In this document: positions 12,859-64,000 of the stretch, piece by piece
How positions within the stretch are numbered: the stretch's first letter is position 1
Layout of the letters: every line of letters starts with the position of its first letter
Origin: Candidatus Poriferihabitaceae bacterium
GTDB taxonomy: Bacteria > Pseudomonadota > Gammaproteobacteria > Arenicellales > Poriferihabitantaceae
Length of the DNA: 64,000 nt
NCBI GenBank assembly: GCA_965226545.1
Contig: OZ245364.1
Span: 1,067,890 to 1,131,889 of the forward strand
Direction of reading: 5' to 3'
Notes under the pieces: model-generated
Seen by the model: the letters and a program-made list of their open reading frames with translations, nothing else
Told to the model about the DNA's origin: nothing
Databases searched by the model: none
Translations under genes and position numbers: made by a program

Positions 12859-12947
12859 GGTTTTGGCGCATCATCGCGGCGCGATTCGAGGCGTTCGAAG
12901 GGGATTGACGGTGATTGGACGGCGCTTCGAGCGTGGCTCGAGCGTTG

Positions 12948-14015
12948 TTACGAATGGCGCGCGAGCGGCTCGGCGCCCGCGTTCGGCGGCGTTGAGTCGC
13001 CGGCGTCGGTGGTGGCTTGATGCTTTACTTGGTCATACCACAAATCGTGATGTTGCTTTGCCCATTCGACGCTGACATGCCCGCGCGTCATGCCTTCGAG
13101 CGCGCCTTCGGTGCCGATGGTGCCGATGTAAACATGCCCGAAGAACACCACAATCCATAAAAGCGCGGCGACGGCGTGGATTTGATGCATGAACTGCATG
13201 TCGGCGCGGCTGTTGTCGACCAAGCCAATCGCGCCGAGCCAGCCAATCAAGCCAAAGCCGCTTATGCACACCGCGCCTAAGCCGACAAAAATCACCAGCC
13301 AAAACCAAATTTTTTCGCCGCCGTTGGCTTTGCCGGCGCTGGGGTGGGATGTGCCGATGATGCCGCCGCCTTGCTTCAGCCATTGGAGGTCGGCGCGGGT
13401 CGGCAGGTTGTTTTTGACCCAGCACAACAACATCGCCAACACGCCGAGCGAAAAGAACGGGCCGATGATGTTATGCAGATTAATCGACAGCGTTGCCCAA
13501 TTGGCAAAGCCGGCGGCGCCGAGCAACGGTATCAGCACGACGCGCCCAAACAATAAACTTAACCCGGTAATCGCCAACACGATGAACAAGCCGGCGGTAT
13601 ACCAATGCATGATGCGTTCCCAGCGTCGCCAGCGCGGCACGCGCATGCCGGAGGTTTCGCCATGCAGTTTGATTTTGCCGCGCACCGCGTAAAACAGCGC
13701 AAGCGCCAGCAACACGCCGATAATCGCCCAGCCGCCGTAAGTGGCGATGACGCCGTTGCGCATCTCGCGCCAGTTTTGCCCGCCGTTGTTAATCAACACG
13801 CCGCGCTCAAAGCCCGGCAATGAGGTGTAGCCGGCTTCGCCGCGCCGCACGGCGCGCCATAAATCGGCGCGCGGGTTGATTTCATCGATGGCGGTTTGCG
13901 CATGCGCGTTGGGTGCGCCGACAAAATACGATGCGGTCGGCAACGCCGTCGCACAAACGACCACCGCCGCCAACGCCAACGCCATCGCGCGGCTACGTGA
14001 ATTTTTTGTTTTCAT
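12948..14015 (-). CDS. Formate dehydrogenase gamma (cytochrome b) subunit with periplasmic N-terminal extension
   Basis: Signal-like N-terminus MKTKNSRSRAMALALAAVVVCA, then a 4-TM cytochrome b module (RWERIMHWYTAGLFIVLAITG ... HQIHAVAALLWIVVFFGHVY). It is the last gene of the fdh operon. Confidence 0.85.
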   Translation of the reverse strand: MKTKNSRSRAMALALAAVVVCATALPTASYFVGAPNAHAQTAIDEINPRADLWRAVRRGEAGYTSLPGFERGVLINNGGQNWREMRNGVIATYGGWAIIGVLLALALFYAVRGKIKLHGETSGMRVPRWRRWERIMHWYTAGLFIVLAITGLSLLFGRVVLIPLLGAAGFANWATLSINLHNIIGPFFSLGVLAMLLCWVKNNLPTRADLQWLKQGGGIIGTSHPSAGKANGGEKIWFWLVIFVGLGAVCISGFGLIGWLGAIGLVDNSRADMQFMHQIHAVAALLWIVVFFGHVYIGTIGTEGALEGMTRGHVSVEWAKQHHDLWYDQVKHQATTDAGDSTPPNAGAEPLARHS

Positions 14016-24982: not shown

Positions 24983-25168
24983 GAAAACCACAGCCGGGCG
25001 AACCACCTGGATTCAACGGACCTTGCAACCAAAGCCCTCCCAACCGCGAATGTCAATATTAATGGCGTGTCGATACAGTGTCAACCACTTTTGTCATCTT
25101 TTTGTGACTTTCACTCGTCTTTTGGCGACTTTGCCTGTGTTTTTAAGGCGCGAATTTTACCCTCCGCA

Positions 25169-54084: not shown

Positions 54085-56118
54085 CTATTTGCGTCGATAA
54101 TCCACGTCGATGCCCGGTTGCCCGAGTGCGCGGGCGAGGTGGTGTGCCGAGAAAATCGCGTGCGCAATAAGCCCCGGCGCTTCGCAATCGCCGATGCGAT
54201 GCACTGATGCATTGTTGTTGATGTCGGCGGCGGCGAGGGAATGATAGAGGTTATCGTTGGGAATTCTTGAGGCAACCATCACGATGCATGCGGCGTCAAA
54301 GCGGCGACTTTCACCGCTGTCGGCGCAGTTAAATTCCGCGATTGCGCCATCGACATCGAATGCGCGCAATGTCAGCGCACATTCCAACCGCACGCCGAGT
54401 TCGCGCATGCGTTTTCGCAATCGGTCTTGTTCCAATGTCAGCCGCGTCCAGCGGGCGAAATCGCGGTGCGGCGTGATGATGCTCGTCGCCACTCCATCGC
54501 CGCGCAGTTTTTCCGCAAGGGCGGCGGCGAGATAGCCGCCGTCATCGTCATAGATGATTGTCGGGCCGGCCATCGTTGCGCCGTCCAGCACATCGTCCGG
54601 GGTGAATACGCCCTGTTGGCTGGCGAGCGGCGGCGTTCGGTGCCGGCGCCCGACGCCGTCTCGATGCCAGGTTGCGCCGGTCGCGCAGATAATATGCTGC
54701 GCGCCGAATTCGGCGGCATCGTCGGCGGTCATCGGCGACGCCGGATAAAGCGCGACATTCGCCATCTTCTCGATTTGCGCAAGTCGATAGTCGCGCACGC
54801 GAATCCATTCGTGCAAGCCGGGCAATTTCGATTCGCGCAACACGCGCCCGCCGAATTGATGCGCGCGTTCGGCCAGCGCAACTTCATAACCTCTGCGCGC
54901 GAGGGTAAGCGCGCATTCCAACCCGGCCGCGCCGCCGCCAATGATGAGCGCGCGCTCGTTGGGTGCATCTTGCGCGATATATTCAGGATGCCAGCCGCGC
55001 CGCCACTCTTCCATGATGGTCGGGTTTTGCGTACAGCGCATCGGGGTGAAACTGTTTTCGCCGGCGACGCAAATATTGCAGCCGATGCATTCGCGGATAT
55101 CCGCTTCGCGCCCTTCGTCAATCTTGCGCGGCAAAAACGGGTCGGCAATCGACGGGCGCGCGGCGCCGATAAAATCCACCACCCGCCGTTTGATTTGCGC
55201 CAACATCGTATCCGGCGAGGTGAAACGCCCGACGCCGACCACCGGTTTTTTGGTCACCGATTTGACGAATGCGATGTGTTGTTCCTCATGCCCCTCGGGC
55301 GCAAAGCGTGAAGTGGCCGAATCATGCGCCCAGTCGTTTACGGTCACATCCCATAAATCCGGTTCCTCGGATTGCGATTCGATTAAGTCGCGCACTTCGT
55401 TGATGTCCACGATGGCGCTTTCGCCAAAATCGGCGACCGCGATGCGCACCGCAACGGCGCATCGGTTGCCGACTGCGTCCTTGGTGTCGGCGAGCAATTC
55501 GCGAAACAATCGGCTGCGGTTGGCGAAACTGCCGCCATATTCATCGGTGCGGTCGTTTAACGTTGTCGACAAAAACTGCGACAAGATGGAGTTGTCGTGC
55601 AAAAAATACACATAGACGACGTCAAAATCGGCCTGCTTGGCGCGCAATGCGGCGTCGCGATGGCGGCGACGCAACTCGCGGATGTCGCGTTTATCCATCG
55701 CGCGCGATTGGCGCGGGTCGATTGATTCAAGCGTCATTCGGCTGCTCGGGCCAAGCGGCGGGCGGCGGGTGGTGCGGTTGGCGGCGGCGATGCCAAAGTG
55801 CGCGAGTTCGCAACCGGCCAATGCGCCGTGCCGGTGAATCGCTTCGGTAACCGCCGCTTGCGCCGGCAAATCATGCGACGACCACAGGCGCGGTTGGGCA
55901 AACGGGCTGATGTCGCTCCATGCATCGGCCATTAAGTTTTCGGTGCACACCACGCCCCAGCCGCCTTCGGCTTTGACCGCGCGCATGCCGGCGGTAATCT
56001 GAGGCGAAGCGTCGCCGACGCCGTTGCAGTGCGGCACTTGGTAAAACCGATTGCGCGCGGTTACCGGGCCAATCGCCACCGGTTCAAACAGCGGGTCGTA
56101 GCGGGGGTTGCGGGGCAT
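54085..56118 (-). CDS. Trimethylamine/dimethylamine/histamine dehydrogenase-family flavoprotein (OYE-like FMN domain + 4Fe-4S + ADP-binding domains)
   Basis: N-terminus YDPLFEPVAIGPVTARNRFYQVPHCNG, with a Cys at the position of the FMN-linking Cys of TMADH. Cluster motif CIGCNICV and dinucleotide fold IIGGGAAGLECA. Confidence 0.8.
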   Translation of the reverse strand: MPRNPRYDPLFEPVAIGPVTARNRFYQVPHCNGVGDASPQITAGMRAVKAEGGWGVVCTENLMADAWSDISPFAQPRLWSSHDLPAQAAVTEAIHRHGALAGCELAHFGIAAANRTTRRPPLGPSSRMTLESIDPRQSRAMDKRDIRELRRRHRDAALRAKQADFDVVYVYFLHDNSILSQFLSTTLNDRTDEYGGSFANRSRLFRELLADTKDAVGNRCAVAVRIAVADFGESAIVDINEVRDLIESQSEEPDLWDVTVNDWAHDSATSRFAPEGHEEQHIAFVKSVTKKPVVGVGRFTSPDTMLAQIKRRVVDFIGAARPSIADPFLPRKIDEGREADIRECIGCNICVAGENSFTPMRCTQNPTIMEEWRRGWHPEYIAQDAPNERALIIGGGAAGLECALTLARRGYEVALAERAHQFGGRVLRESKLPGLHEWIRVRDYRLAQIEKMANVALYPASPMTADDAAEFGAQHIICATGATWHRDGVGRRHRTPPLASQQGVFTPDDVLDGATMAGPTIIYDDDGGYLAAALAEKLRGDGVATSIITPHRDFARWTRLTLEQDRLRKRMRELGVRLECALTLRAFDVDGAIAEFNCADSGESRRFDAACIVMVASRIPNDNLYHSLAAADINNNASVHRIGDCEAPGLIAHAIFSAHHLARALGQPGIDVDYRRK

Positions 56119-56201
56119 TGCAATACTTGCCGCCAACTGCGCAAACAAAAAATGCCGCCGCTGAAAAAATCAGCGGCGGCGTGATTGCCGCGCCATGCGC
56201 G

Positions 56202-57755
56202 TTATGCGCGCCACCAGCGTTCGGCGATGCGCATGCCGTCCAAGTCGAGATTGCCGCCCACTTGATGATGGGTGAATTTGTCGGAGTGGGCGTTGACATA
56301 GTTGGCGAACATTGGCACGAGCGTCCCGCCTTGCGCGTGGATGTAACGCTGCATCTCGCCGTACATTTCGCGGCGCTTGGCGTCGTCCAATTCGGCGCGC
56401 GCTTTAACCAGCAGTTCGTCAAACCGTGCATTGGCTTGCGCGGTTTCATTCCATTCGGCGCCGGTTCTGTGCACCACCGTGAAGATGTAATCCTCCTCGC
56501 GTCCGGCCCAGTAACTAAACGACCACGGCTTTTTGTTCCACACATTCGACCAATAGCCGTCCTTCGGTTCGCGGATGACATTGATGGTGATGCCGGCTTT
56601 GGCGGCGTGCTCTTTATACAGCACGGCGGTATCCTCGCAACCGACGAATGCGGCATCCGACGCCGACAGGTCGAGCGTAAGGTCTTGCATCCCGGCCTTT
56701 TTGAGATGATGCTTCGCTTGGTCGGGGTCGTAGTTGTGTTGCCGGAGGTCGGCGTTGAAATAACGATGTTGGCGCGAGATCGGGTTGTCGTTGCCGATGT
56801 TGCCGTAGCCGCGCAGAATTTTTTTGACGATTTCCTCGCGGTCAATCGCATATTTGAGCGCAAGGCGCACGTCGTTGTTGTCGAATGGCGCAACATTCAT
56901 TCGCATCGGGATGGTGTAATACTGCCGCCCTTCGGTGGCCGCCACAACCACGCCTTTGCGGCGCTTTAACCGGTCGACCGTTTTTAAATCGCAACGGTCG
57001 ATGTAATCCACATCGCCGGTAATTAACGCACTGGTGCGCGCGACCACATCCAAAATGGCGATGAGCACGACCGAATCAAAATACGGCTTGCCGTCGCGAA
57101 AGTAGTTTGCATGCCGCTCAGCGGCGGCGCGCACCCCCGGCTCAAAATTCTTCAACGCGAATGGCCCGGCGCCAATGCCGGAGACATCCACTGTGCCGCC
57201 GGTCGACGGCATTACCACCAGACGGAAATCGGCAAACAACAACGGCAAATCGGCGTTGCCGTCGCGCAACGTCACGTTAATGCGGTTTGCACCGGCGGCT
57301 TTGATTGAGGTAATCGCCTTCAACAGCGGCTTGGCGCCGGATTTGGAATCTTCGCCGCGGTGGTGGTTGATGGAGGCGACGACATCGTCGGCGGTCACCG
57401 TTTTGCCGTTGTGAAATTCGGCGCCGCGCACCAGTTCGAATGTCCACTGCTTGGCGCCCGGTTGCGCCTGCCAACGCTCGGCCAACATCGGCGCAAGCGA
57501 GCCGTCGGGCGCGACTTCGGTCAGCGTCGCATGCAACGTGCCGCCTAAGCCCTGGGTGAATGAGTTGGCGTAGTTCGCCGGGTCAAGCGAATCACCGGTG
57601 GCGCCGGCGCCGATGCCAAGGCGGAAATGCCCGCCGCGTTTCGGCGCCGCCTGTGCGCCAAACGACAACGGCAACGCCGCGCTTGCCCCGAGTATCGCCG
57701 ATTGCTGTAAAAATTTGCGGCGCGAAAAACCGCCGCGCAGGTTGGACTGTTTCAT
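56202..57755 (-). CDS. Family-5 (peptide/opine/nickel type) ABC substrate-binding protein with TAT signal
   Basis: MKQSNLRGGFSRRKFLQQSAILGASAALPLSFGAQA followed by an SBP_bac_5-like body. No cognate permease or ATPase genes are adjacent. Confidence 0.8.
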   Translation of the reverse strand: MKQSNLRGGFSRRKFLQQSAILGASAALPLSFGAQAAPKRGGHFRLGIGAGATGDSLDPANYANSFTQGLGGTLHATLTEVAPDGSLAPMLAERWQAQPGAKQWTFELVRGAEFHNGKTVTADDVVASINHHRGEDSKSGAKPLLKAITSIKAAGANRINVTLRDGNADLPLLFADFRLVVMPSTGGTVDVSGIGAGPFALKNFEPGVRAAAERHANYFRDGKPYFDSVVLIAILDVVARTSALITGDVDYIDRCDLKTVDRLKRRKGVVVAATEGRQYYTIPMRMNVAPFDNNDVRLALKYAIDREEIVKKILRGYGNIGNDNPISRQHRYFNADLRQHNYDPDQAKHHLKKAGMQDLTLDLSASDAAFVGCEDTAVLYKEHAAKAGITINVIREPKDGYWSNVWNKKPWSFSYWAGREEDYIFTVVHRTGAEWNETAQANARFDELLVKARAELDDAKRREMYGEMQRYIHAQGGTLVPMFANYVNAHSDKFTHHQVGGNLDLDGMRIAERWWRA

Positions 57756-57909
57756 AATGAGCACCTTTACAGTTGAGACCGGCAATTAACATACTCCGAT
57801 ATTCACATAAATTGCAAACTATCGAACGCGGCGAAAAGTCAATTCGCCGCGCAATTCACCGCGCAAATGCCGTATTGCGCGAAACACTCGGCATTGCTAT
57901 GATTCACCA

Positions 57910-59304
57910 ATGCCCAAACAAACTTTATACGACAAACTCTGGCAACAACACGTTGTCGACGACGCCGACGACGGCACGACGTTAATCTATATCGACCGTC
58001 ATCTGGTGCACGAAGTCACTTCGCCGCAGGCGTTCGAAGGGTTGCACTTGGCAAAGCGCACGCCGTGGCGCACCGACAGCGTGTTGGCGGTGCCCGACCA
58101 CAACATCCCGACGACATCCGACAGCGGTGCGATTGACGACCCGGTGTCGCGGTTGCAGGTGCGCACGCTCGCGCAAAACTGCACGCATTTCGGCATCACC
58201 GAATTCGGCATGGGCGATCCGCGTCAGGGCATTGTGCATGTCATCGGGCCGGAGCAGGGGTTGACCTTGCCCGGCATGACGATTGTGTGCGGCGATTCGC
58301 ACACTTCGACGCACGGCGCATTCGGTGCGCTTGCATTCGGCATCGGCACTTCGGAGGTCGAACACGTGTTGGCGACGCAATGTTTAATCCAACGCAAATC
58401 CAAAAACATGCGCATCGTGTTGCGCGGTCAACCGCGCGCGCATGTATCGGCGAAAGATTTGGCGTTGGCGCTTATCGGCGAAATCGGCACCGCCGGCGGC
58501 ACCGGGTATGCGATTGAGTTTGCCGGCGAGGCGGTCGAATCGCTGTCGATGGAAGGGCGGATGACGCTGTGCAATATGGCAATCGAAGCCGGTGCGCGCG
58601 CCGGCATGATTGCGGTTGACCAAACGACAATCGATTATTTAAAAGACCGTCCGTATGCACCGCAAGGCAAGTTGTGGCAATCGGCGGTGGCGCATTGGCG
58701 TCAATTCACCAGCGACGCCGACGCCGTATTCGACCGTGAAGTTGACATCGATGCGTCCGCCGTCGCCCCGCAAGTTACTTGGGGCACTTCGCCGGAGATG
58801 GTCACCGACATCGACGGCAGCATCCCCGACCCGGCCGCGCAATCCGACCCGGGCAAACGCGAGAGTATGCAACTTGCGCTCGATTATATGGGGTTGCGCC
58901 CCGGCACCAAGATGCGCGATATCCCGTTGGATTTAATTTTCATTGGTTCATGCACCAACAGCCGCATCGAGGATTTACGCATCGTCGCCGAGGTTGTTAA
59001 AGGCAAACGCGTTTCCGCCGACATTAAACAAGCGTTGGTTGTGCCCGGCTCCGGGTTGGTAAAACGTCAAGCCGAAAACGAAGGCTTGCATCAAGTGTTC
59101 ATCGACGCCGGTTTCGAATGGCGCAACCCGGGTTGCTCGATGTGTTTGGCGATGAACGCCGACCGATTAAAGCCCGGCGAACGATGCGCATCGACTTCGA
59201 ATCGAAACTTCGAAGGTCGACAAGGTCAAGGCGGGCGCACGCATTTGGTCTCGCCGGCCATCGCCGCCGCCACCGCCATCGCCGGCCGTTTCGCCGCAAT
59301 CTAA
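57910..59304 (+). CDS. leuC: 3-isopropylmalate dehydratase large subunit
   Basis: [16 protein letters not shown] opening with aconitase-family Cys ligand contexts ([26 protein letters not shown]). Confidence 0.96.
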
Positions 59305-59945
59305 TGGACGCCTTCACTCGTTTGGATGCGCTGGTCGCCCCGCTCGACCGCGCCAATGTCGACACCGACGCGATTATCCCCAAGCAATATTTAAAATCCA
59401 TCAAGCGCACCGGCTTCGGCGCCAATTTATTCGATGAATGGCGCTATCTCGACCCCGGCGAACCCGGCGGCGACCACGCCAGCCGCCGCATCAACCCGGA
59501 TTTTGTGCTCAATCAAAAACGCTACACCGGCGCACAATTATTACTCGCCCGCAAAAATTTCGGCTGCGGCTCATCCCGCGAACACGCCCCCTGGGCGCTG
59601 CTCGGCTACGGCTTCCGCTGCCTAATCGCCCCAAGTTTCGCCGACATTTTTTACAACAACTGTTTCCAAAACGGCATCCTGCCGATTGTCACGGACGAAA
59701 AAACCGTCGACACCCTATTCACCGAAGTCGAACAAACCCCCGGCTATCGCCTGCAGATAGACCTCGCCGCCCAATGCATCACCAAACCCGACGGCGAAAA
59801 AATCCCCTTCGACATCGATGCGGCGCGTAAGAAAGCGTTGCTGGAGGGGTTGGATGATATTGCCGCGACACTGGCGCGGGCGGGGTTGATTCGGGCGTAT
59901 GAGGAGCGGCGGAGGGGGGAGGTGCCTTGGTTGTTTGGGGCATAA
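59304..59945 (+). CDS. leuD: 3-isopropylmalate dehydratase small subunit
   Basis: The ATG overlaps the leuC stop (TAATG). Motifs [13 protein letters not shown] and [13 protein letters not shown]. Confidence 0.95.
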
Positions 59946-59988
59946 TGCTGTTTTGCGGTAAAAATCTCACAATCCAACGGGGGTTGAA

Positions 59989-62433
59989 ATGAACATGAAA
60001 GAATTGGGCATGAAGTTGCTTCGCGCCGAGTCGGAGGCGGAAGTGGCGGCGATTGTCGATGTTGACCCGGTAATGTCCGACGCGTCAAACTGGCGCGCAG
60101 TTGACGACCGTGACACCAACTTCAACATCGTCAAGAATCAATCGTCTACCGGCGGCAAAGCGGCCACCGAGTTAATCACCAATATGGTGGATGCGGTGCT
60201 GATGAAGCGGTGTTTGGAGGAAGGGATTGACCCAAAAGGTCAAGACGCCCCGGCAACGATGTATAAAGCGGTTGACGCTTTTATACAAAACTTAAATGGC
60301 GGGCGAATTATTGACGCCGATGATGATTGGTTGCTGAGCTATGCTCGGGAAAATCTAATAATCGGTGTAACCGCCGTTAACACCCGCGTCAAGCCTTGCT
60401 ATACATTTGCCGACAACGGCGAAGGACAACACCCGGACGATTTTCCGAGTACGTTTCTGTCGCTCAGCAAGAAAAACAAAAGTCAAATTCCTTTTGTGCA
60501 GGGGAAGTACAACATGGGTTCTTCAGGCGTGTTGGGTTTCTGCGGCACAAGGTGGTTCAAACTCATAGTGTCTCGACGTTTTGACAAAAGCGGCGGTTGG
60601 GGCTGGACGCTTGTTAAAAAACATTCGGGTGACGCCGACCAAGACGTGTACGCCGAGTATTTTGCGCCACAAGGCAAAATCCCGACGCTGGGAGACCTTC
60701 AGATTCTTTTGCCGTTCCAGACAAAAGGCGGAAAAGAGTTCAATCAATTTAGTCTTGATGCCGGCACCGTGGTAAAAGTCTATGACTTTTATGTTGGGAA
60801 AGATTTTAAAGGATTCTATGGTTCGCGCGAGGCGTTTAACGAAAACCTTGTGGAAACCATATTGCCTTTCAGAATCTACGATTTTCGATGGCCCGCCAGT
60901 GCCAACCGCAGTGGTTTGCGCGCGCTGGGGGTTGACGAGCGGACGTTCTACGGCATGGAGTTTTTATTGCGTAGAGCGCACAGTGACGTTAATGCAGTTG
61001 CTGATGATTTGGATGGTCACGATACGGTGGAAGCCGATTCAAAGAGTGCTTTGCACGTCGCGACGATTGAAGCCCCCAATCTTGGGAGAATTGTTCTTTC
61101 CGCCATCCCGATTAAAAAACCAAAAGTTTCAAAAAAGAAAACTTGGTTTCAAAGGTCTAAAAACCGGGTATTTCACCATGTTAATGGGCAGGTGCATTTT
61201 AAGCGCCCGCGCGGGTTTTTGACCCAATGCGGACTTCAGGCACTGAAAGACCGTGTGGTAATTTTTGTTGACGCCAGTGCTTTGAAGGACGTCGCGCGCC
61301 AAGATATATGGAAAAGCGACCGTGAACAAATCTTCGATAGCCCCACAGGCGAGGAGTATAAAAGCGAAGTTCAGAAGGCAATAAGCGAATCTCCCGTGCT
61401 GAAAGAGTTAAATCATCGCGTTGCGCGCGAGGAACTGGCAACAGTGGTGGAAGACATTTCGCGCGACGTGGTTGGCGCGCTTATAAAGCGAGACCCCAAT
61501 TTGGCACTCTTGCTGGATGAGAGTTACCCGCAGGTGCAAGTGCCTGGAGACGGTGTGCCCAATCCGCAACCCCCCGTGAACTTTTCGCATCAATACAGTC
61601 CTAGTTTTATAAAATTTGCCACGCGCAAATTGGACATTGAACTGCCAATTAACCGAAAGCGTCCGATTCCGTGCATAACAGACGTGAATCGGGATTACTT
61701 TATCCGTGCATCCAATCAAGGGCATTTGCATTTCGAAAAAGACGAAACGGCTGACATGTTTTCGTTTCGCGCAAACTTCGATGAAATTGGGAATTTGGTC
61801 GTGTTTGTTACCCCGAATGCGCAACAACTGCGCGTTGGCGATGTACACGAATTTAAGATTGGGTTATATGACGACGCAATGCCGGAGCCTGTTTATACAG
61901 ATGTTGCGATTCGCATTACGGTTGTAAAAAAGCAGCCGCCTCGCCCACCTCCGCCTCCCGTGCCTGTACCGGACCCAAAGCCAAAGGTAACATCCAAGGG
62001 GTTACCTCGGGTCAGGTTGCTTACGAAAAAAGGGCGCAAAGTGCTTGACAAAGACACTGTGCGCTGGGATGACCCTCTTGTCAGTGAACTTGCTTTTACC
62101 GAGCAAGACGGCGGTTTCGTCCAAGATTTGGGTGAGGGGAAAATTTACAACATTAACTGTGATAATCAGTGGTTCATAAACTACCTGGGACACCAAAAAA
62201 GGGCTGACCAGAAAAGTGCGGCTACGCACAAATACATCCTGGGGATGCAAATTATGATGCTGGGGTTAGAAATCGCCTTGGCGAAAGAGCAGCCCGAAGA
62301 AGATGATGCATTCGATACAGACAAATTCCGCCGTTTAGCATCGAAAGGCGTTGCGGCGGCTATAATGTCCCTGTGCCAGTTGCCGGAGAGTTTTGATTCG
62401 AGCGGCGATGCGGGCGATGCAGATGATGAGTGA
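59989..62433 (+). CDS. GHKL-superfamily (HATPase_c_3-like) ATPase, 814 aa, first gene of an m5C methyltransferase/Vsr operon
   Basis: Bergerat-fold motifs appear in the right order: N-box ATELITNMVDA (ExxxNxxD), G1 box FADNGEGQ (DxGxG) and G2 box GKYNMGSSGVLGF. I found no nuclease motif. There is a proline-rich linker PPRPPPPPVPVPDPKPK. G+C is markedly lower than in leuCD. Confidence 0.7.
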   Translation: MNMKELGMKLLRAESEAEVAAIVDVDPVMSDASNWRAVDDRDTNFNIVKNQSSTGGKAATELITNMVDAVLMKRCLEEGIDPKGQDAPATMYKAVDAFIQNLNGGRIIDADDDWLLSYARENLIIGVTAVNTRVKPCYTFADNGEGQHPDDFPSTFLSLSKKNKSQIPFVQGKYNMGSSGVLGFCGTRWFKLIVSRRFDKSGGWGWTLVKKHSGDADQDVYAEYFAPQGKIPTLGDLQILLPFQTKGGKEFNQFSLDAGTVVKVYDFYVGKDFKGFYGSREAFNENLVETILPFRIYDFRWPASANRSGLRALGVDERTFYGMEFLLRRAHSDVNAVADDLDGHDTVEADSKSALHVATIEAPNLGRIVLSAIPIKKPKVSKKKTWFQRSKNRVFHHVNGQVHFKRPRGFLTQCGLQALKDRVVIFVDASALKDVARQDIWKSDREQIFDSPTGEEYKSEVQKAISESPVLKELNHRVAREELATVVEDISRDVVGALIKRDPNLALLLDESYPQVQVPGDGVPNPQPPVNFSHQYSPSFIKFATRKLDIELPINRKRPIPCITDVNRDYFIRASNQGHLHFEKDETADMFSFRANFDEIGNLVVFVTPNAQQLRVGDVHEFKIGLYDDAMPEPVYTDVAIRITVVKKQPPRPPPPPVPVPDPKPKVTSKGLPRVRLLTKKGRKVLDKDTVRWDDPLVSELAFTEQDGGFVQDLGEGKIYNINCDNQWFINYLGHQKRADQKSAATHKYILGMQIMMLGLEIALAKEQPEEDDAFDTDKFRRLASKGVAAAIMSLCQLPESFDSSGDAGDADDE

Positions 62434-63532
62434 CAAAAACGCCAATCCACTCAAAGCCGTCGATTTTTTCTGCGGCGGCGGCGGCATGTCGCTTGGCATG
62501 CGCAAAGCCCGCGTGGAAATTATCGCGGGCATCGACAACGACCCTAAGTGTCGTGAAACCTACGAAGCCAACCACCCGGCGTCCAAGTTTATTAACAAGG
62601 ACATAAAGGAGTTTGGGCCGCGACAACTTGGGCGGGAAATTAAAATCGCCAGAAACGACGACAACATGATTTTCATCGGTTGTTCGCCGTGCCAGTATTG
62701 GAGCGTTATCACCGGCAAAGACGGTTCGCACCGCAAGCAATCGGCGCATGACAGCCGCAACTTACTGCAATATTTTTTGCGCTTTGTAGACCACTATCGC
62801 CCGGGATTCGTGCTGATAGAAAATGTCCGCGGCATTGAGCGTCGCCCGGAGGAAAGTGGTCTTGCCGAGTTGACCAATTTTTTGGACAAAGCGAATTATC
62901 GCCACAAATCAGAACTGTTGTTGACCAATGATTACGGCGTGCCGCAATCACGCCGGCGGTTTATTCTGGTCGCTTCGCGCGTGCTTGATTCCGTTTCATT
63001 GCCGCCGCCGCAAAGGAAACATCCGGCAACTGTGCGCGAATTCATCGGCGATGGACGACTGCCGAAAATTAAGGCGGGCGAATGCGATGCGAAGGACAAA
63101 CTGCATAAATCTTCTTCGCTTAGCGCAACCAACATCGAGCGATTGGAATTGACGCCGATGGGCGGGTTGCGCGGGCATTGGCATGAGCGCAACGACCTGC
63201 AGATTGACGCTTATCGAAACAAAACGGCGGAATTTTTTCGCGAGAACTATGGGCGCATGGCGTGGGATGAACCTGCGCCGACCATCACCACCAAATTTTT
63301 CGCGCTCGGTTGCGGGCGTTTCGGGCATCCCGACCAAAACCGCGCAATTTCACTTCGCGAAGGTGCGATGTTGCAAACCTTTCCCAAGAGTTACAAATTT
63401 AAAACGTCAGGCTTCGGTAATACTGCGCGAATTATCGGCAATGCAGTTCCGCCTGAGTTCGCCAAGGCGATTGGCAAGTCAATCGTAAAGCAATGGCGGA
63501 TGTCTTCGACCGGCAAACGCGCTCGCGCATAA
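62423..63532 (+). CDS. dcm: DNA (cytosine-5)-methyltransferase
   Basis: All hallmark motifs are present: I DFFCGGGGMSLG, IV GCSPCQYWS, VI LIENVRG, VIII VPQSRRRFILVA, X IGNAVPPEF. The ATG overlaps the end of the upstream gene by 8-11 nt. Confidence 0.95.
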   Translation: MMSDKNANPLKAVDFFCGGGGMSLGMRKARVEIIAGIDNDPKCRETYEANHPASKFINKDIKEFGPRQLGREIKIARNDDNMIFIGCSPCQYWSVITGKDGSHRKQSAHDSRNLLQYFLRFVDHYRPGFVLIENVRGIERRPEESGLAELTNFLDKANYRHKSELLLTNDYGVPQSRRRFILVASRVLDSVSLPPPQRKHPATVREFIGDGRLPKIKAGECDAKDKLHKSSSLSATNIERLELTPMGGLRGHWHERNDLQIDAYRNKTAEFFRENYGRMAWDEPAPTITTKFFALGCGRFGHPDQNRAISLREGAMLQTFPKSYKFKTSGFGNTARIIGNAVPPEFAKAIGKSIVKQWRMSSTGKRARA

Positions 63533-63915
63533 TGTCGCGCGTTCGCGCGCGCGGCAACCTGTCGACCGAGCGGCGCTTTGCCGACATTTTGCGCAAGCAA
63601 AAGATAATCGGCTGGCGGCGCGGTTATGCGTTGCCGGGCAAACCGGATTTTGTTTTTCCCGCCGCGCGCGTGGCGGTGTTTGTGGACGGATGCTTTTGGC
63701 ACGGTTGCCCGGTGCACGGGCAAATTCCGGTGAACAACAGGGGATTTTGGAAAAACAAAATCAACGGCACCGTCGCCCGCGACCTCCGCATCACCCGCAA
63801 ACTGCGCACACTCGGCTGGCATGTCTTTCGCATTTGGGAACACGACATCAACAAGCCGACGTTGAATCGCAAGATTGGCAGGATACGGCGGATTGTGGAA
63901 CAATCGAATTATTGA
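63493..63915 (+). CDS. vsr: Very-short-patch repair endonuclease
   Basis: Motifs RSRIMSRVRARGNLSTE, LPGKPDFVFPAARVAVFVDGCFWHGCP and NNRGFWKNKI. Overlaps the dcm end by 40 nt. Confidence 0.93.
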   Translation: MADVFDRQTRSRIMSRVRARGNLSTERRFADILRKQKIIGWRRGYALPGKPDFVFPAARVAVFVDGCFWHGCPVHGQIPVNNRGFWKNKINGTVARDLRITRKLRTLGWHVFRIWEHDINKPTLNRKIGRIRRIVEQSNY

Positions 63916-64000
63916 CTGTTTGACCGCAACTATATGTTGCGCGTGTATCGACGGAATGCTTGGATGGCTTGGTAGATTAATGAACCTTCCAAGACGCGAA

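Follow-up and report, generated by a model that had tools for sequence, protein, structure and literature searches.

Directly 3' of leuD, a genome of Candidatus Poriferihabitaceae bacterium carries three overlapping genes on the forward strand, the first of which encodes an 814-aa protein that, in its structural model, is a GHKL ATPase with a transducer module. The second and third genes encode a C5-cytosine DNA methyltransferase (Dcm) and a very-short-patch T:G mismatch endonuclease (Vsr). Because its relatives adjoin three different DNA-modification systems, the ATPase probably serves as the effector in a modification-linked type of defence. On balance, we favour reading the whole cassette as a modification-linked defence module that is self-contained and horizontally mobile and resembles a restriction-modification system. 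All positions refer to the window, the whole stretch of 64,000 nucleotides that was analysed, and all features lie on the + strand.

Organization and boundaries of the cassette

The cassette is preceded by leuC (57910..59304; PF00330 Aconitase, E 3e-177), a host gene outside it, and by leuD (~59304..59945; PF00694 Aconitase_C), which forms its left boundary; these genes encode the large and small subunits of 3-isopropylmalate dehydratase, respectively. The leuD gene call of the sister strain L082 (95.7% nucleotide identity) also carries LeuD families. A gap of 43 nt separates the leuD stop from the ORF of the 814-aa protein (59989..62433), which was read to end at the TGA codon 62431-62433. 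The dcm gene (62393..63532) was matched by PF00145 (E 9e-55), TIGR00675 and PADLOC MTase_II (E 9e-86). Its start could be ATG 62426 or 62423, overlapping the preceding ORF by 8 or 11 nt, and further candidates are ATG 62408 (26 nt) and TTG 62393 (41 nt); an ATG within 62408-62426, overlapping the ATPase stop, is the likely start. The vsr gene (63493..63915; PF03852, E 1e-17; PADLOC Vsr) forms the right boundary, and its product scored 103.8 bits against TIGR00632, above the cut-off of 97.85. Since its N-terminus (MADV...) aligned to Vsr models from residue 1, the start was placed at ATG 63493, giving an overlap of 40 nt with dcm. The first-pass annotation had described a GHKL-Dcm-Vsr operon after leuD with overlaps of 8-11 nt and 40 nt, and the ORFs, the Dcm and Vsr family matches and these ATG codons agree with it. 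No promoter belonging to the cassette was recognisable, and transcription may occur by read-through from leuCD.

The G+C content of the cassette was 0.512, compared with 0.567 (sd 0.015) for the rest of the window, in which the lowest value among the other 4-kb windows was 0.522. The drop in G+C noticed earlier was thus real, but smaller than claimed, leuC having 0.591 and not about 0.65. An independent copy of the cassette (locus L001; 67.5% nucleotide identity), which is flanked by unrelated housekeeping genes, was also G+C-poor (0.511 versus 0.572). The nucleotide homology of this copy is limited to 59992-63897 of the window, and accordingly we place the end of the island at vsr and not, as had been supposed, beyond the window. 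From these homology limits, the cassette is exactly three genes, running from the leuD side to vsr. The genes 3' of vsr in L082 were found beside no other family member. The cassette had also been thought to displace leuB; no leuB signature was detected anywhere in the window, nor over the 10 kb that follow in L082, and such displacement is therefore unsupported. The three genes are a horizontally acquired set that travels as one unit.

Predicted structure of the 814-aa protein

The 814-aa protein had no family match in Pfam, NCBIfam or PADLOC, and Pfam gave HATPase_c_3 at E 0.15 and nothing else. Distant members of the family matched HATPase_c_3 at E 2e-5. When an AlphaFold2 model of the protein (pLDDT 80.5) was used for Foldseek, the matches were Hsp90 (E 2.5e-9), MORC3 (1e-6), MutL (1.8e-6) and TopoVI-B (2.6e-6), with SMCHD1 and MORC2 also among them. 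The alignments extended over ~450-500 columns and covered Hsp90 N+M and the MORC, MutL LN40 and TopoVI-B ATPase-transducer modules. On the basis of these structure matches and, transitively, of the HATPase_c_3 matches of the distant members, the GHKL assignment made from hand-read motifs was upheld.

The Bergerat (GHKL) ATP-binding domain (residues ~51-330; 60139..60978) was delimited by its conserved boxes, Foldseek and the distant-member HATPase_c_3 matches. It contains the N box E61/N65/D68, the G1 box D142-G144-G146 and the G2 box Q171-G172-K173...G177...G180, as well as T207; the motifs quoted previously are present, and each of these residues recurs in 90% or more of the Dcm-linked members and in 85% or more of the distant ones. 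The transducer (S5-like) domain (residues ~352-450), followed by long helices (452-510; 61042..61518 in total), was defined by Foldseek, secondary structure and conservation, and its conserved residues are N399-G400-Q401, D428 and R445. Next, an Ig-like β-sandwich domain (residues ~535-650; 61591..61938; pLDDT 86 in the C-terminal model) was matched by Foldseek solely to Ig/PapD/cadherin-like sandwiches (E ~4e-4). Secondary structure and conservation delimited a C-terminal small β plus three-helix domain (residues ~672-797; 62002..62379), followed by an acidic tail. This domain was the least conserved segment when identity was compared by segment, and it is a candidate dimerisation or partner-binding domain.

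Distribution of the ATPase family and its partners

The first search gave 739 homologues, and the family comprises ~1,980 clusters at 50% identity. In the close clade (38-60% identity), found in Proteobacteria, Acidobacteria, Dehalococcoidia and Omnitrophota, Dcm adjoined the ATPase gene at 45 of 47 loci, which show four different gene orders. Vsr was adjacent in ~29 loci, and about one third of the Dcm-linked loci had no adjacent Vsr. The divergence of the ATPase co-varied with that of Dcm (Mantel r 0.64, 0/2000 permutations). The gene trio is thus conserved, with a tight linkage of the ATPase to Dcm across phyla, which answers, as regards conservation, the refutation that the first-pass annotation had set for itself. 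In the divergent-arrangement type, a MerR-like HTH gene lies upstream of dcm and a conserved gene of ~75 aa upstream of the ATPase gene; this placement of a small regulator gene next to the one for modification is reminiscent of restriction-modification systems and their control genes.

The distant clade (26-30% identity) was located in or beside sspABCD phosphorothioation clusters in 29 of 34 loci, and the ATPase gene was often inside the operon, as sspA-ATPase or sspD-ATPase-GIY-YIG-like-DndB-like. In four loci of this clade, a PF01555 N6/N4 methyltransferase gene directly adjoined the ATPase gene. The full domain architecture of the ATPase was kept with all three partner classes, and Vsr was absent from all Ssp-linked and N6/N4-methyltransferase-linked loci. 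Defence genes, among them those for Mrr_cat and GmrSD_N/DUF262 proteins, were frequent nearby, and a Type ISP enzyme was present in the neighbourhood of L082.

Orphans were rare. An intact ATPase gene was found beside an IS200-like transposase in locus L077, and in L033 the sole Dcm remnant next to an intact ATPase gene was a C-terminal fragment. Locus L042 had no Dcm and a degraded ATPase gene, and in L045 the entire module had decayed. PADLOC (2023), which matched Dcm and Vsr of the window, has no model for the ATPase family; therefore, the family has not surfaced in the defence screens represented in PADLOC.

Search for a nuclease or target-recognition part

In agreement with the earlier reading, no nuclease was recognised in the 814-aa protein by the Pfam, NCBIfam and PADLOC libraries, which gave no restriction endonuclease family match, by a PDB profile search, or by Foldseek of the C-terminal half model; residue conservation revealed no nuclease-like residue set across the family. 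No DNA-reading domain was identified, and no variable target-recognition region was evident from identity by segment.

These results bear on the possibility that the protein is by itself a full ATP-dependent restriction enzyme with its catalytic site in an unrecognised fold, such as the β/helical domain at the C-terminus or a composite dimer site, in which case the cassette would have an ordinary restriction-modification mechanism with an unusual enzyme. In favour of this, the ATPase holds the R position beside M in four gene orders, D681, D707, D725, K748 and E761 are invariant in the C-terminal domain within the Dcm-linked clade, and the endonuclease site of MutL likewise escaped sequence-based recognition for years. 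However, when both clades were compared, conservation in this domain was limited to W693, N723 and D725, and this result, together with the missing nuclease fold, endonuclease family matches and target-recognition region, makes such an enzyme unlikely.

Other roles of the ATPase

Somewhat less likely again is a role as a dedicated MutL-like accessory of modification or repair, which would, for instance, stimulate Vsr in very-short-patch repair or aid the modification enzymes in scanning DNA, and would not be a defence effector. Such a role would fit the MutL/Hsp90-like fold of the N-terminal half, the fact that Vsr is the sole nuclease within the trio, and the functional interaction of E. coli MutL with Vsr referred to in PMC2292703 (refs 17-18). 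It is difficult to reconcile with the Dcm-linked loci without an adjacent Vsr, with the Ssp- and N6/N4-methyltransferase-linked members, and with the lateral mobility and low G+C of the cassette, which are as in defence genes. Moreover, to our knowledge, characterised Dcm-type methyltransferases and SspABCD function without such a factor.

The pair could also be mainly a selfish addiction module, in which the ATPase would be a toxin, perhaps acting as a clamp that traps DNA, restrained epigenetically by the linked modification, and would stabilise the cassette without acting against phage. The tight linkage and co-inheritance of the ATPase and Dcm, as well as the decay in L042 and L045, are consistent with this, and unrestrained SspFGH and DndFGH are toxic in cells without modification (PMC8092258). 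Nevertheless, the ATPase gene is intact next to the truncated Dcm of L033 and as an orphan in L077, and addiction is compatible with defence and hence no exclusive alternative. Most restriction-modification systems behave both as defence and as addiction. We consider a mainly selfish module a little less probable still. That the adjacency carries no function, the 814-aa ORF being a hypothetical gene that hitch-hikes by a solitary Dcm-Vsr pair (such pairs are common), is very improbable in view of the linkage across phyla in several gene orders with overlapping frames, the co-variation with Dcm, and the pairing of related ATPases with other modification systems.

Proposed function of the cassette

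We infer restriction by the cassette from its gene context. In the modification-linked defence module favoured here, Dcm would put a 5-methylcytosine mark on the host DNA, and Vsr would mend T:G mismatches arising from deamination of 5-methylcytosine. The 814-aa effector would be a GHKL-transducer clamp like those of Hsp90, MORC and MutL, gated by ATP and probably dimeric, and would act on DNA without the mark. Modified and unmodified DNA would most plausibly be discriminated via or with the partner modification enzyme, as Type III Res depends on Mod. Damage might be caused by a nuclease in trans (Vsr in the present case, the small GIY-YIG-like protein where relatives are linked to Ssp, or an enzyme of the host), modelled on the activation of Vsr and MutH by MutL, by an active site so far unrecognised, or without cleavage as in BREX.

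This reading draws on the GHKL-transducer fold with its conserved boxes, the movement of the cassette as a unit, the linkage to Dcm, the exchange of partners in the distant clade, the regulatory layout and defence-gene neighbours, and the precedents of the predicted GHKL restriction-modification components, VcSduA and BREX. Against it, the ATPase is well conserved (40-60% identity) and its partner Dcms are diverse (~30-37% identity), which is unlike a sequence-specific restriction enzyme. The orphans L077 and L033, the absence from PADLOC, the fact that no promoter of the cassette was recognised and the fact that no nuclease or DNA-reading domain was identified were likewise counted against it.

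Comparison with known systems

The trio resembles the E. coli MutL-Vsr partnership of very-short-patch repair in that a GHKL-transducer ATPase is encoded or acts with Vsr and a Dcm methyltransferase. However, MutL carries a dimerisation domain of its own at the C-terminus and has MutS as a partner, whereas the window ATPase has an Ig-like domain and a helical C-terminus, and its family also occurs without Vsr and with non-m5C modification systems. SspE, SspFGH, DndFGH and BREX share with the cassette an effector tied to self-marking, and relatives of the window ATPase lie inside sspABCD clusters; nevertheless, they have no sequence relationship to the ATPase, which was not matched by the PADLOC SspE, Dnd and Brx models. 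BREX, for which we know of no nuclease, employs methylation in type 1. Phosphorothioation is employed by BREX type 4 (PMC12914056), and SspF has a Walker A motif and SspH an FtsK-like C-terminus (PMC8092258).

Mza (mzaABCDE) comprises five genes, including those for a MutL-like ATPase and the nuclease MzaD. Like the window system, for which this role is putative, it has a GHKL/MutL-like ATPase in an anti-phage role (activity data in bioRxiv 10.1101/2022.06.16.496414), but none of its PADLOC models matched the window ATPase. VcSduA (Shedu type I-D, formerly paraMORC3), a GHKL-nuclease fusion and validated anti-phage protein in which the ATPase glutamate is essential (PMC12137116), is also one large GHKL ATPase, and the middle domain is clamp-like. 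It differs in its C-terminal DUF4263 PD-(D/E)xK nuclease and works without a methyltransferase, whereas the window ATPase has no DUF4263 match and no nuclease fold and is paired with a modification module.

GHKL ATPases near Dcm and Vsr have been predicted as restriction-modification components (PMC2292703; Iyer, Abhiman and Aravind 2008), and the link to paraMORC drawn by the first-pass annotation was apt. As in paraMORC/MORC proteins, an N-terminal GHKL domain with intact motifs precedes a transducer/S5 domain, and the C-terminal extension is specific to the family; the neighbourhoods are laterally mobile, with cytosine methylases and Vsr-family nucleases. These ATPases were proposed to be a MutL-like ATP-driven engine partnering a nuclease, and their operons usually add an SF2 helicase, a nuclease of the restriction-fold, HNH or HKD type, or both, unless the ATPase itself is fused to such a nuclease (paraMORC3) or to TIR (paraMORC4) (PMC2292703). 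In contrast, the window system consists of the ATPase and Dcm, with or without Vsr, alone; its ATPase falls below the HATPase_c_3 match level of Pfam and has no match to the MORC-specific S5 motif. No report of linkage to Ssp phosphorothioation was found in the literature searched. The cassette is a novel variation on the predicted GHKL/paraMORC restriction-modification theme.

Organization, extent, and mobility of the cassette

The three genes were found in the same orientation directly downstream of leuC (57910-59304) and leuD (about 59304-59945). The first gene (59989-62433) encodes the 814-aa ATPase, the second (62393-63532) a Dcm protein of 379 aa if counted from the first TTG, and the third (63493-63915) a Vsr protein of 140 aa. 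The second product matched PF00145 (E 9e-55), TIGR00675, and the PADLOC model MTase_II (E 9e-86), and was a complete C5-cytosine methyltransferase. The third matched PF03852 (E 1e-17) and also TIGR00632 with 103.8 bits, above the curated cut-off of 97.85 bits, which places it among the Vsr proteins. The gene overlaps claimed in the first-pass annotation were indeed observed: the stop codon of the ATPase gene (TGA, 62431-62433) overlaps Dcm reading frames starting at the ATG codons 62426 (8 nt) and 62423 (11 nt), Dcm might also start at 62408 or 62393, and the ATG of Vsr at 63493 sits 40 nt inside the Dcm gene, its MADV... N-terminus aligning from position 1 of the Vsr model. The drop in G+C described after leuD was also present, since the G+C of 59946-63915 was 0.512 against 0.567 (sd 0.015) in the remaining window, where no other 4-kb piece was below 0.522; however, its size had been overstated, as leuC showed 0.591 and not about 0.65. 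When a promoter and a terminator of the cassette were sought, no clear promoter of its own was found, the promoter-like matches being at the consensus level only.

The locus of a sister strain (L082) was 95.7% identical to the window over 57872-64000 and showed the same leuCD-ATPase-Dcm-Vsr arrangement. Beyond the point corresponding to the window end, it continued with a convergent 430-aa gene of no family, DUF4926, SprT-like, trpA, and trpB. The trio also occurred as an independent copy (L001), flanked by genes for a sulfatase and cytochrome b; its proteins were 59-70% identical to those of the window, its G+C was 0.511 against 0.572 in the flanks, and its nucleotide homology to the window was confined to 59992-63897. 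The limits of this homology and the unrelated flanking genes indicate that the mobile unit is exactly the three genes. Thus, the cassette ends with vsr, and the earlier view that the island continues past the window was not borne out. Neither a flanking repeat pair nor a nearby tRNA target was found for the cassette. Because neither the window nor the flank of L082 showed a leuB signature, the proposal that the cassette displaced leuB is not proven.

The 430-aa gene adjoining vsr (L082:13942-15234, minus strand) has its 3' end at about 63930-64000 of the window, and its product, which is rich in repeats in the N-terminal part and hydrophobic at the C-terminus, resembles a membrane or repeat protein. 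This gene was rejected as the true nuclease of the system, as the product had no Pfam match in addition to its membrane- or repeat-like character and the gene stood beside no other family member. On the other side of leuCD, the segment upstream of leuC differed between the two 96%-identical strains: window 54583-57872 carries minus-strand ORFs of 687 and 527 aa, by sequence flavin oxidoreductase-like and ABC-type substrate-binding-like, and L082:4659-7885 a 1048-aa Type ISP restriction-modification enzyme (N6_Mtase, MmeI_Mtase, Type_ISP_C). Therefore, in this lineage the DNA on either side of leuCD is variable and of the defence type.

Elsewhere, the window begins within a 23S rRNA gene (1-1374; model positions 1771-2925), and a 5S rRNA gene comes next. 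The Neisseria DUS was looked for and was absent. An unusually long (94 nt) tRNA-Arg(ACG) was predicted by ARAGORN at 12918-13011, and an Rfam DUF3800-VI cis-regulatory RNA motif, unrelated to the cassette, was found at 24991-25046 on the minus strand (45.1 bits; gathering score, 35).

Assignment of the 814-aa protein to the GHKL ATPases

The 814-aa protein, searched as a whole and as three sub-fragments, gave no match at E < 0.01 in Pfam, NCBIfam, or PADLOC; the sole library signal was that of the N-terminal third to HATPase_c_3 at E 0.15, and single-sequence and profile searches of PDB sequences returned nothing usable. A word-indexed search yielded 739 matches, all unnamed or "hypothetical", and an exhaustive profile search yielded 1,980 clusters at 50% identity. 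The family ranges from Proteobacteria to Chloroflexota, Bacteroidota, and Poribacteria, under no name in the three libraries.

An AlphaFold2 model built from 45 homologues (mean pLDDT 80.5) was compared with the PDB by Foldseek. The best matches were Hsp90 (E 2.5e-9), MORC3 (E 1e-6), MutL LN40 (E 1.8e-6), TopoVI-B (E 2.6e-6), and SMCHD1 and MORC2 (E about 1e-5), with a probability of 1.0 to Hsp90, MORC3, MutL LN40, TopoVI-B, SMCHD1, and isolated Hsp90 N-domains. The modelled N-terminal part thus shows the Bergerat α/β sandwich, and the alignments covered 450-500 columns of two-domain targets, corresponding to the ATPase and transducer pair. The model suggests a dimeric, ATP-gated clamp.

The GHKL motifs I (N box, ExxxNxxD), II (G1, DxGxG), III (G2, glycine-rich lid), and IV were all present in order. 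The two deep clades of the family shared E61, N65, and D68 of the N box, D142, G144, and G146 of the G1 box, Q171-G172-K173...G177...G180 of the G2 box, T207, and, in the predicted transducer, N399-G400-Q401, D428, and R445; K405 and R408 were conserved in the Dcm-linked clade. In the GHKL subgroup with a transducer (S5-fold) domain (MutL, Hsp90, type II topoisomerase B, and MORC), this second α/β domain provides a basic or polar residue to the γ-phosphate, for which N399-G400-Q401, K405, and R408 may be candidates. Furthermore, distant family members matched PF13589 (HATPase_c_3) at the gathering score (E 2e-5, 25.1 bits). Taken together, the model matches, the conserved Bergerat motifs, and the HATPase_c_3 signal of distant members confirm the GHKL assignment made in the first-pass annotation at the level of predicted structure and sequence, and the ATPase is probably active.

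Search for a nuclease in the 814-aa protein

A cognate methyltransferase, as in Type II restriction-modification, is present, the gene of the PF00145 Dcm overlapping that of the ATPase. No endonuclease fold or family was recognized in the 814-aa protein with Pfam, NCBIfam, the PADLOC REase models, PDB sequences, or Foldseek. For the C-terminal fold search, residues 525-814 were modelled separately (pLDDT 86), and this model matched only β-sandwiches of the Ig/PapD/cadherin type, covering about 535-650. In the model, the last ~125 structured residues fold into a small sheet and three helices; of this part only W693, N723, and D725 were conserved throughout the family, a set too small for a PD-(D/E)xK, HNH, GIY-YIG, or PLD site, although the far C-terminal domain could hold a cryptic one. 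The claim that the protein has no recognizable nuclease stands. With the corrections to the G+C figures, the extent of the island, and leuB, the observation of a GHKL ATPase-Dcm-Vsr operon was confirmed, and its interpretation as a restriction-modification-like module was supported.

ATPase loci linked to Dcm

We compared 81 loci (80 from species-representative genomes and one from a metagenome) together with L082. In the close clade, which comprised 47 loci with ATPase identities of 38-60%, Dcm adjoined the ATPase gene in 45, one of which retained just a C-terminal piece of Dcm; the two loci with no Dcm match were one at a contig edge and one with a broken ATPase gene. An adjacent Vsr was observed in about 29. 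The gene order was ATPase→Dcm→Vsr in the window, L082, and L001; the other orders were Vsr→ ←Dcm with a divergent ATPase→, Dcm→ATPase→(Vsr), mainly in Dehalococcoidia, and ATPase→Vsr→Dcm. The pairwise identities of ATPase and Dcm co-varied (Mantel r 0.64, 0 of 2000 permutations).

The divergent subtype carries two extra genes, a MerR-type HTH gene upstream of Dcm and a ~75-aa gene upstream of the ATPase gene, neither of which was found in the window subtype. The ~75-aa protein (L003:9697-9927, L081:9652-9876, and 20 other loci) is encoded on the same strand immediately upstream of the ATPase gene, in the divergent Dcm subtype and in one N6/N4-methyltransferase-linked locus. Its conserved core reads ...KFVRLANKRVNNALKSIQLIGNLSNRSNYDYTEEDV..., and it belongs to no known family, with weak DUF4145-like matches (E 0.02-0.07). 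The MerR/HTH_17-type regulator gene was found at L020:9394-9609 (minus strand), L005:2038-2286 (minus strand), and eight other loci; a small regulator beside a modification gene recalls, by analogy, the control genes of restriction-modification systems. The other recurrent short-ORF neighbours in the Dcm-linked clade were set aside as mostly shadow ORFs, lying inside the three main genes.

Several loci showed decay or additional genes. An intact 797-aa ATPase ORF (L033:1875-4678) followed a Dcm remnant that comprised just the C-terminal ~120 aa, even though ~1.9 kb of sequence was available upstream; either an effector gene has survived here without its methyltransferase or the arrangement is an artefact of MAG assembly. 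At L042:10001-12468 the ATPase gene was split into three ORFs with Dcm absent nearby, and at L045:7622-12376 the ATPase, Dcm, and Vsr genes were all fragmented. A second, unrelated GHKL protein of ~743 aa was encoded near several modules (L026:13432-15663, L027, L034, L036, L040, and L075). It has an N-terminal HATPase_c_3 and a C-terminal, histidine-kinase-like HATPase_c, matched the PADLOC model REase_II PDLC03419 (E 1e-10), and resembles paraMORC/HEF_HK two-component-like elements (PMC8011034).

ATPase loci linked to Ssp and N6/N4 methyltransferases

The distant clade comprised 34 loci with identities of 26-30%, and Dcm was absent from all of them. Twenty-nine lay within 10 kb of sspB/C/D and/or sspA (PADLOC SspA-D, E 1e-67 to 0), the ATPase gene often being within the ssp operon. 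The order was sspA-ATPase in Bacteroidota; in Poribacteria and others, sspD-ATPase was followed by a GIY-YIG-like protein of 165-170 aa and then by a DndB/DGQHR protein. In four of the remaining loci a PF01555 N6/N4 methyltransferase immediately adjoined the ATPase gene, and one (L077) was an orphan beside an IS200-like transposase gene. A full-text literature search returned no description of a GHKL or MORC ATPase linked to Ssp or phosphorothioation clusters. The ATPase kept all of its seven structural segments with each of the three classes of partner, and the C-terminal helices were the least conserved.

The two genes downstream of the ATPase gene were observed at L058:12497-14250, L066:3923-5648, L057, L068, L071, and L073. 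The GIY-YIG-like protein matched GIY_YIG_2 (E 0.009) and the UvrC N-terminus (E 0.006), and the DndB/DGQHR protein matched PF14072 (E 2e-32). The three genes could constitute a restriction module for sspBCD distinct from SspE and SspFGH.

Discussion

In 2008, Iyer, Abhiman and Aravind predicted that GHKL+S5 ATPases (MORC and paraMORC1-5) in Dcm/Vsr neighbourhoods are restriction-modification components (PMC2292703). As a rule, such systems also contain a helicase and/or a nuclease (PMC2292703), whereas the module described here is nuclease-less. The 814-aa protein was not assigned to MORC sensu stricto, the S5 motif of which is GhXhhpXXRhl (PMC2292703): the best candidate, G400-Q-V-H-F-K-R-P-R408-G-F, keeps the G...R spacing but is polar where the motif demands hydrophobic residues, and the distant clade does not conserve R408. 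paraMORC3, the validated Shedu type I-D protein VcSduA, bears a DUF4263 nuclease (PMC12137116). This identity was excluded, as the window protein is devoid of the C-terminal DUF4263 PD-(D/E)xK domain or any restriction-fold domain; DUF4263 gave no match even at E 10 on C-terminal fragments, and none in PADLOC. paraMORC4 is unlikely, since no TIR match was found. The published Ssp restriction partners, SspE (DUF262 + DUF1524) and SspFGH, are unrelated to the protein (PMC8092258). SspH was specifically rejected, published SspF having a Walker A motif and SspH an FtsK-like C-terminus (PMC8092258), and the PADLOC SspA-D models matched neighbouring genes and in no case the ATPase.

The Mza system has a MutL-like ATPase. 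It includes the nuclease MzaD (bioRxiv 10.1101/2022.06.16.496414). We rate the present module as one of a largely predicted kind; it is a GHKL module that is minimal and nuclease-less, and the range of its modification partners is newly noted.

Judging from the gene context, we cautiously favour the 814-aa protein as the effector of a modification-linked defence module. Its architecture is kept while the partner switches among a C5 methyltransferase, an amino-methyltransferase, and phosphorothioation; accordingly, it behaves like an effector half rather than a helper of a single chemistry. The same constancy argues against a dedicated MutL-type helper for Vsr, and so does the distribution of Vsr, which about a third of the Dcm-linked loci and all of the other loci lack. 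The ATPase stays 40-60% identical while the partner Dcms are only ~30-37% identical, from which we infer that the choice of target comes from the partner enzyme. The partner modification enzyme, rather than a recognition domain in the ATPase itself, would then select the target in the manner of Type III systems. Harm to DNA might be done by a nuclease in trans (Vsr here, the GIY-YIG-like protein of certain Ssp clusters, or an enzyme of the host), which would echo the activation of Vsr and MutH by MutL (PMC2292703), by a cryptic active site in the ATPase, or by exclusion without cleavage, as in BREX. A more specific and tentative proposal, which we consider less likely than not, is a nuclease-free restriction effector, namely an ATP-gated GHKL clamp that is recruited by the paired C5 methyltransferase, N6/N4 methyltransferase, or SspABCD and that traps or topologically disables unmodified incoming DNA or hands it to a small trans nuclease (Vsr, GIY-YIG). 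If this proposal were true, the module would parallel, in prokaryotes, the silencing of unmarked DNA by MORC-type proteins, and among modification-linked defence systems that do not cleave DNA themselves it would be the smallest known.

The family is large, with about 2,000 clusters at 50% identity and no name in Pfam, NCBIfam, or PADLOC. According to the work on SspFGH, about 84% of sspBCD clusters lack a known restriction partner (PMC8092258), and the family is a candidate partner for some of them. If the protein is a defence effector, one scaffold would serve three self-marks, 5-methylcytosine, N6/N4 methylation, and backbone phosphorothioation, and would be well suited to studying how an effector tells modified from unmodified DNA with neither a dedicated reader nor a nuclease domain. 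With just two or three genes, the module would also provide a minimal model in which to examine the origin of MORC-like ATPases as restriction-modification components, as predicted in 2008.
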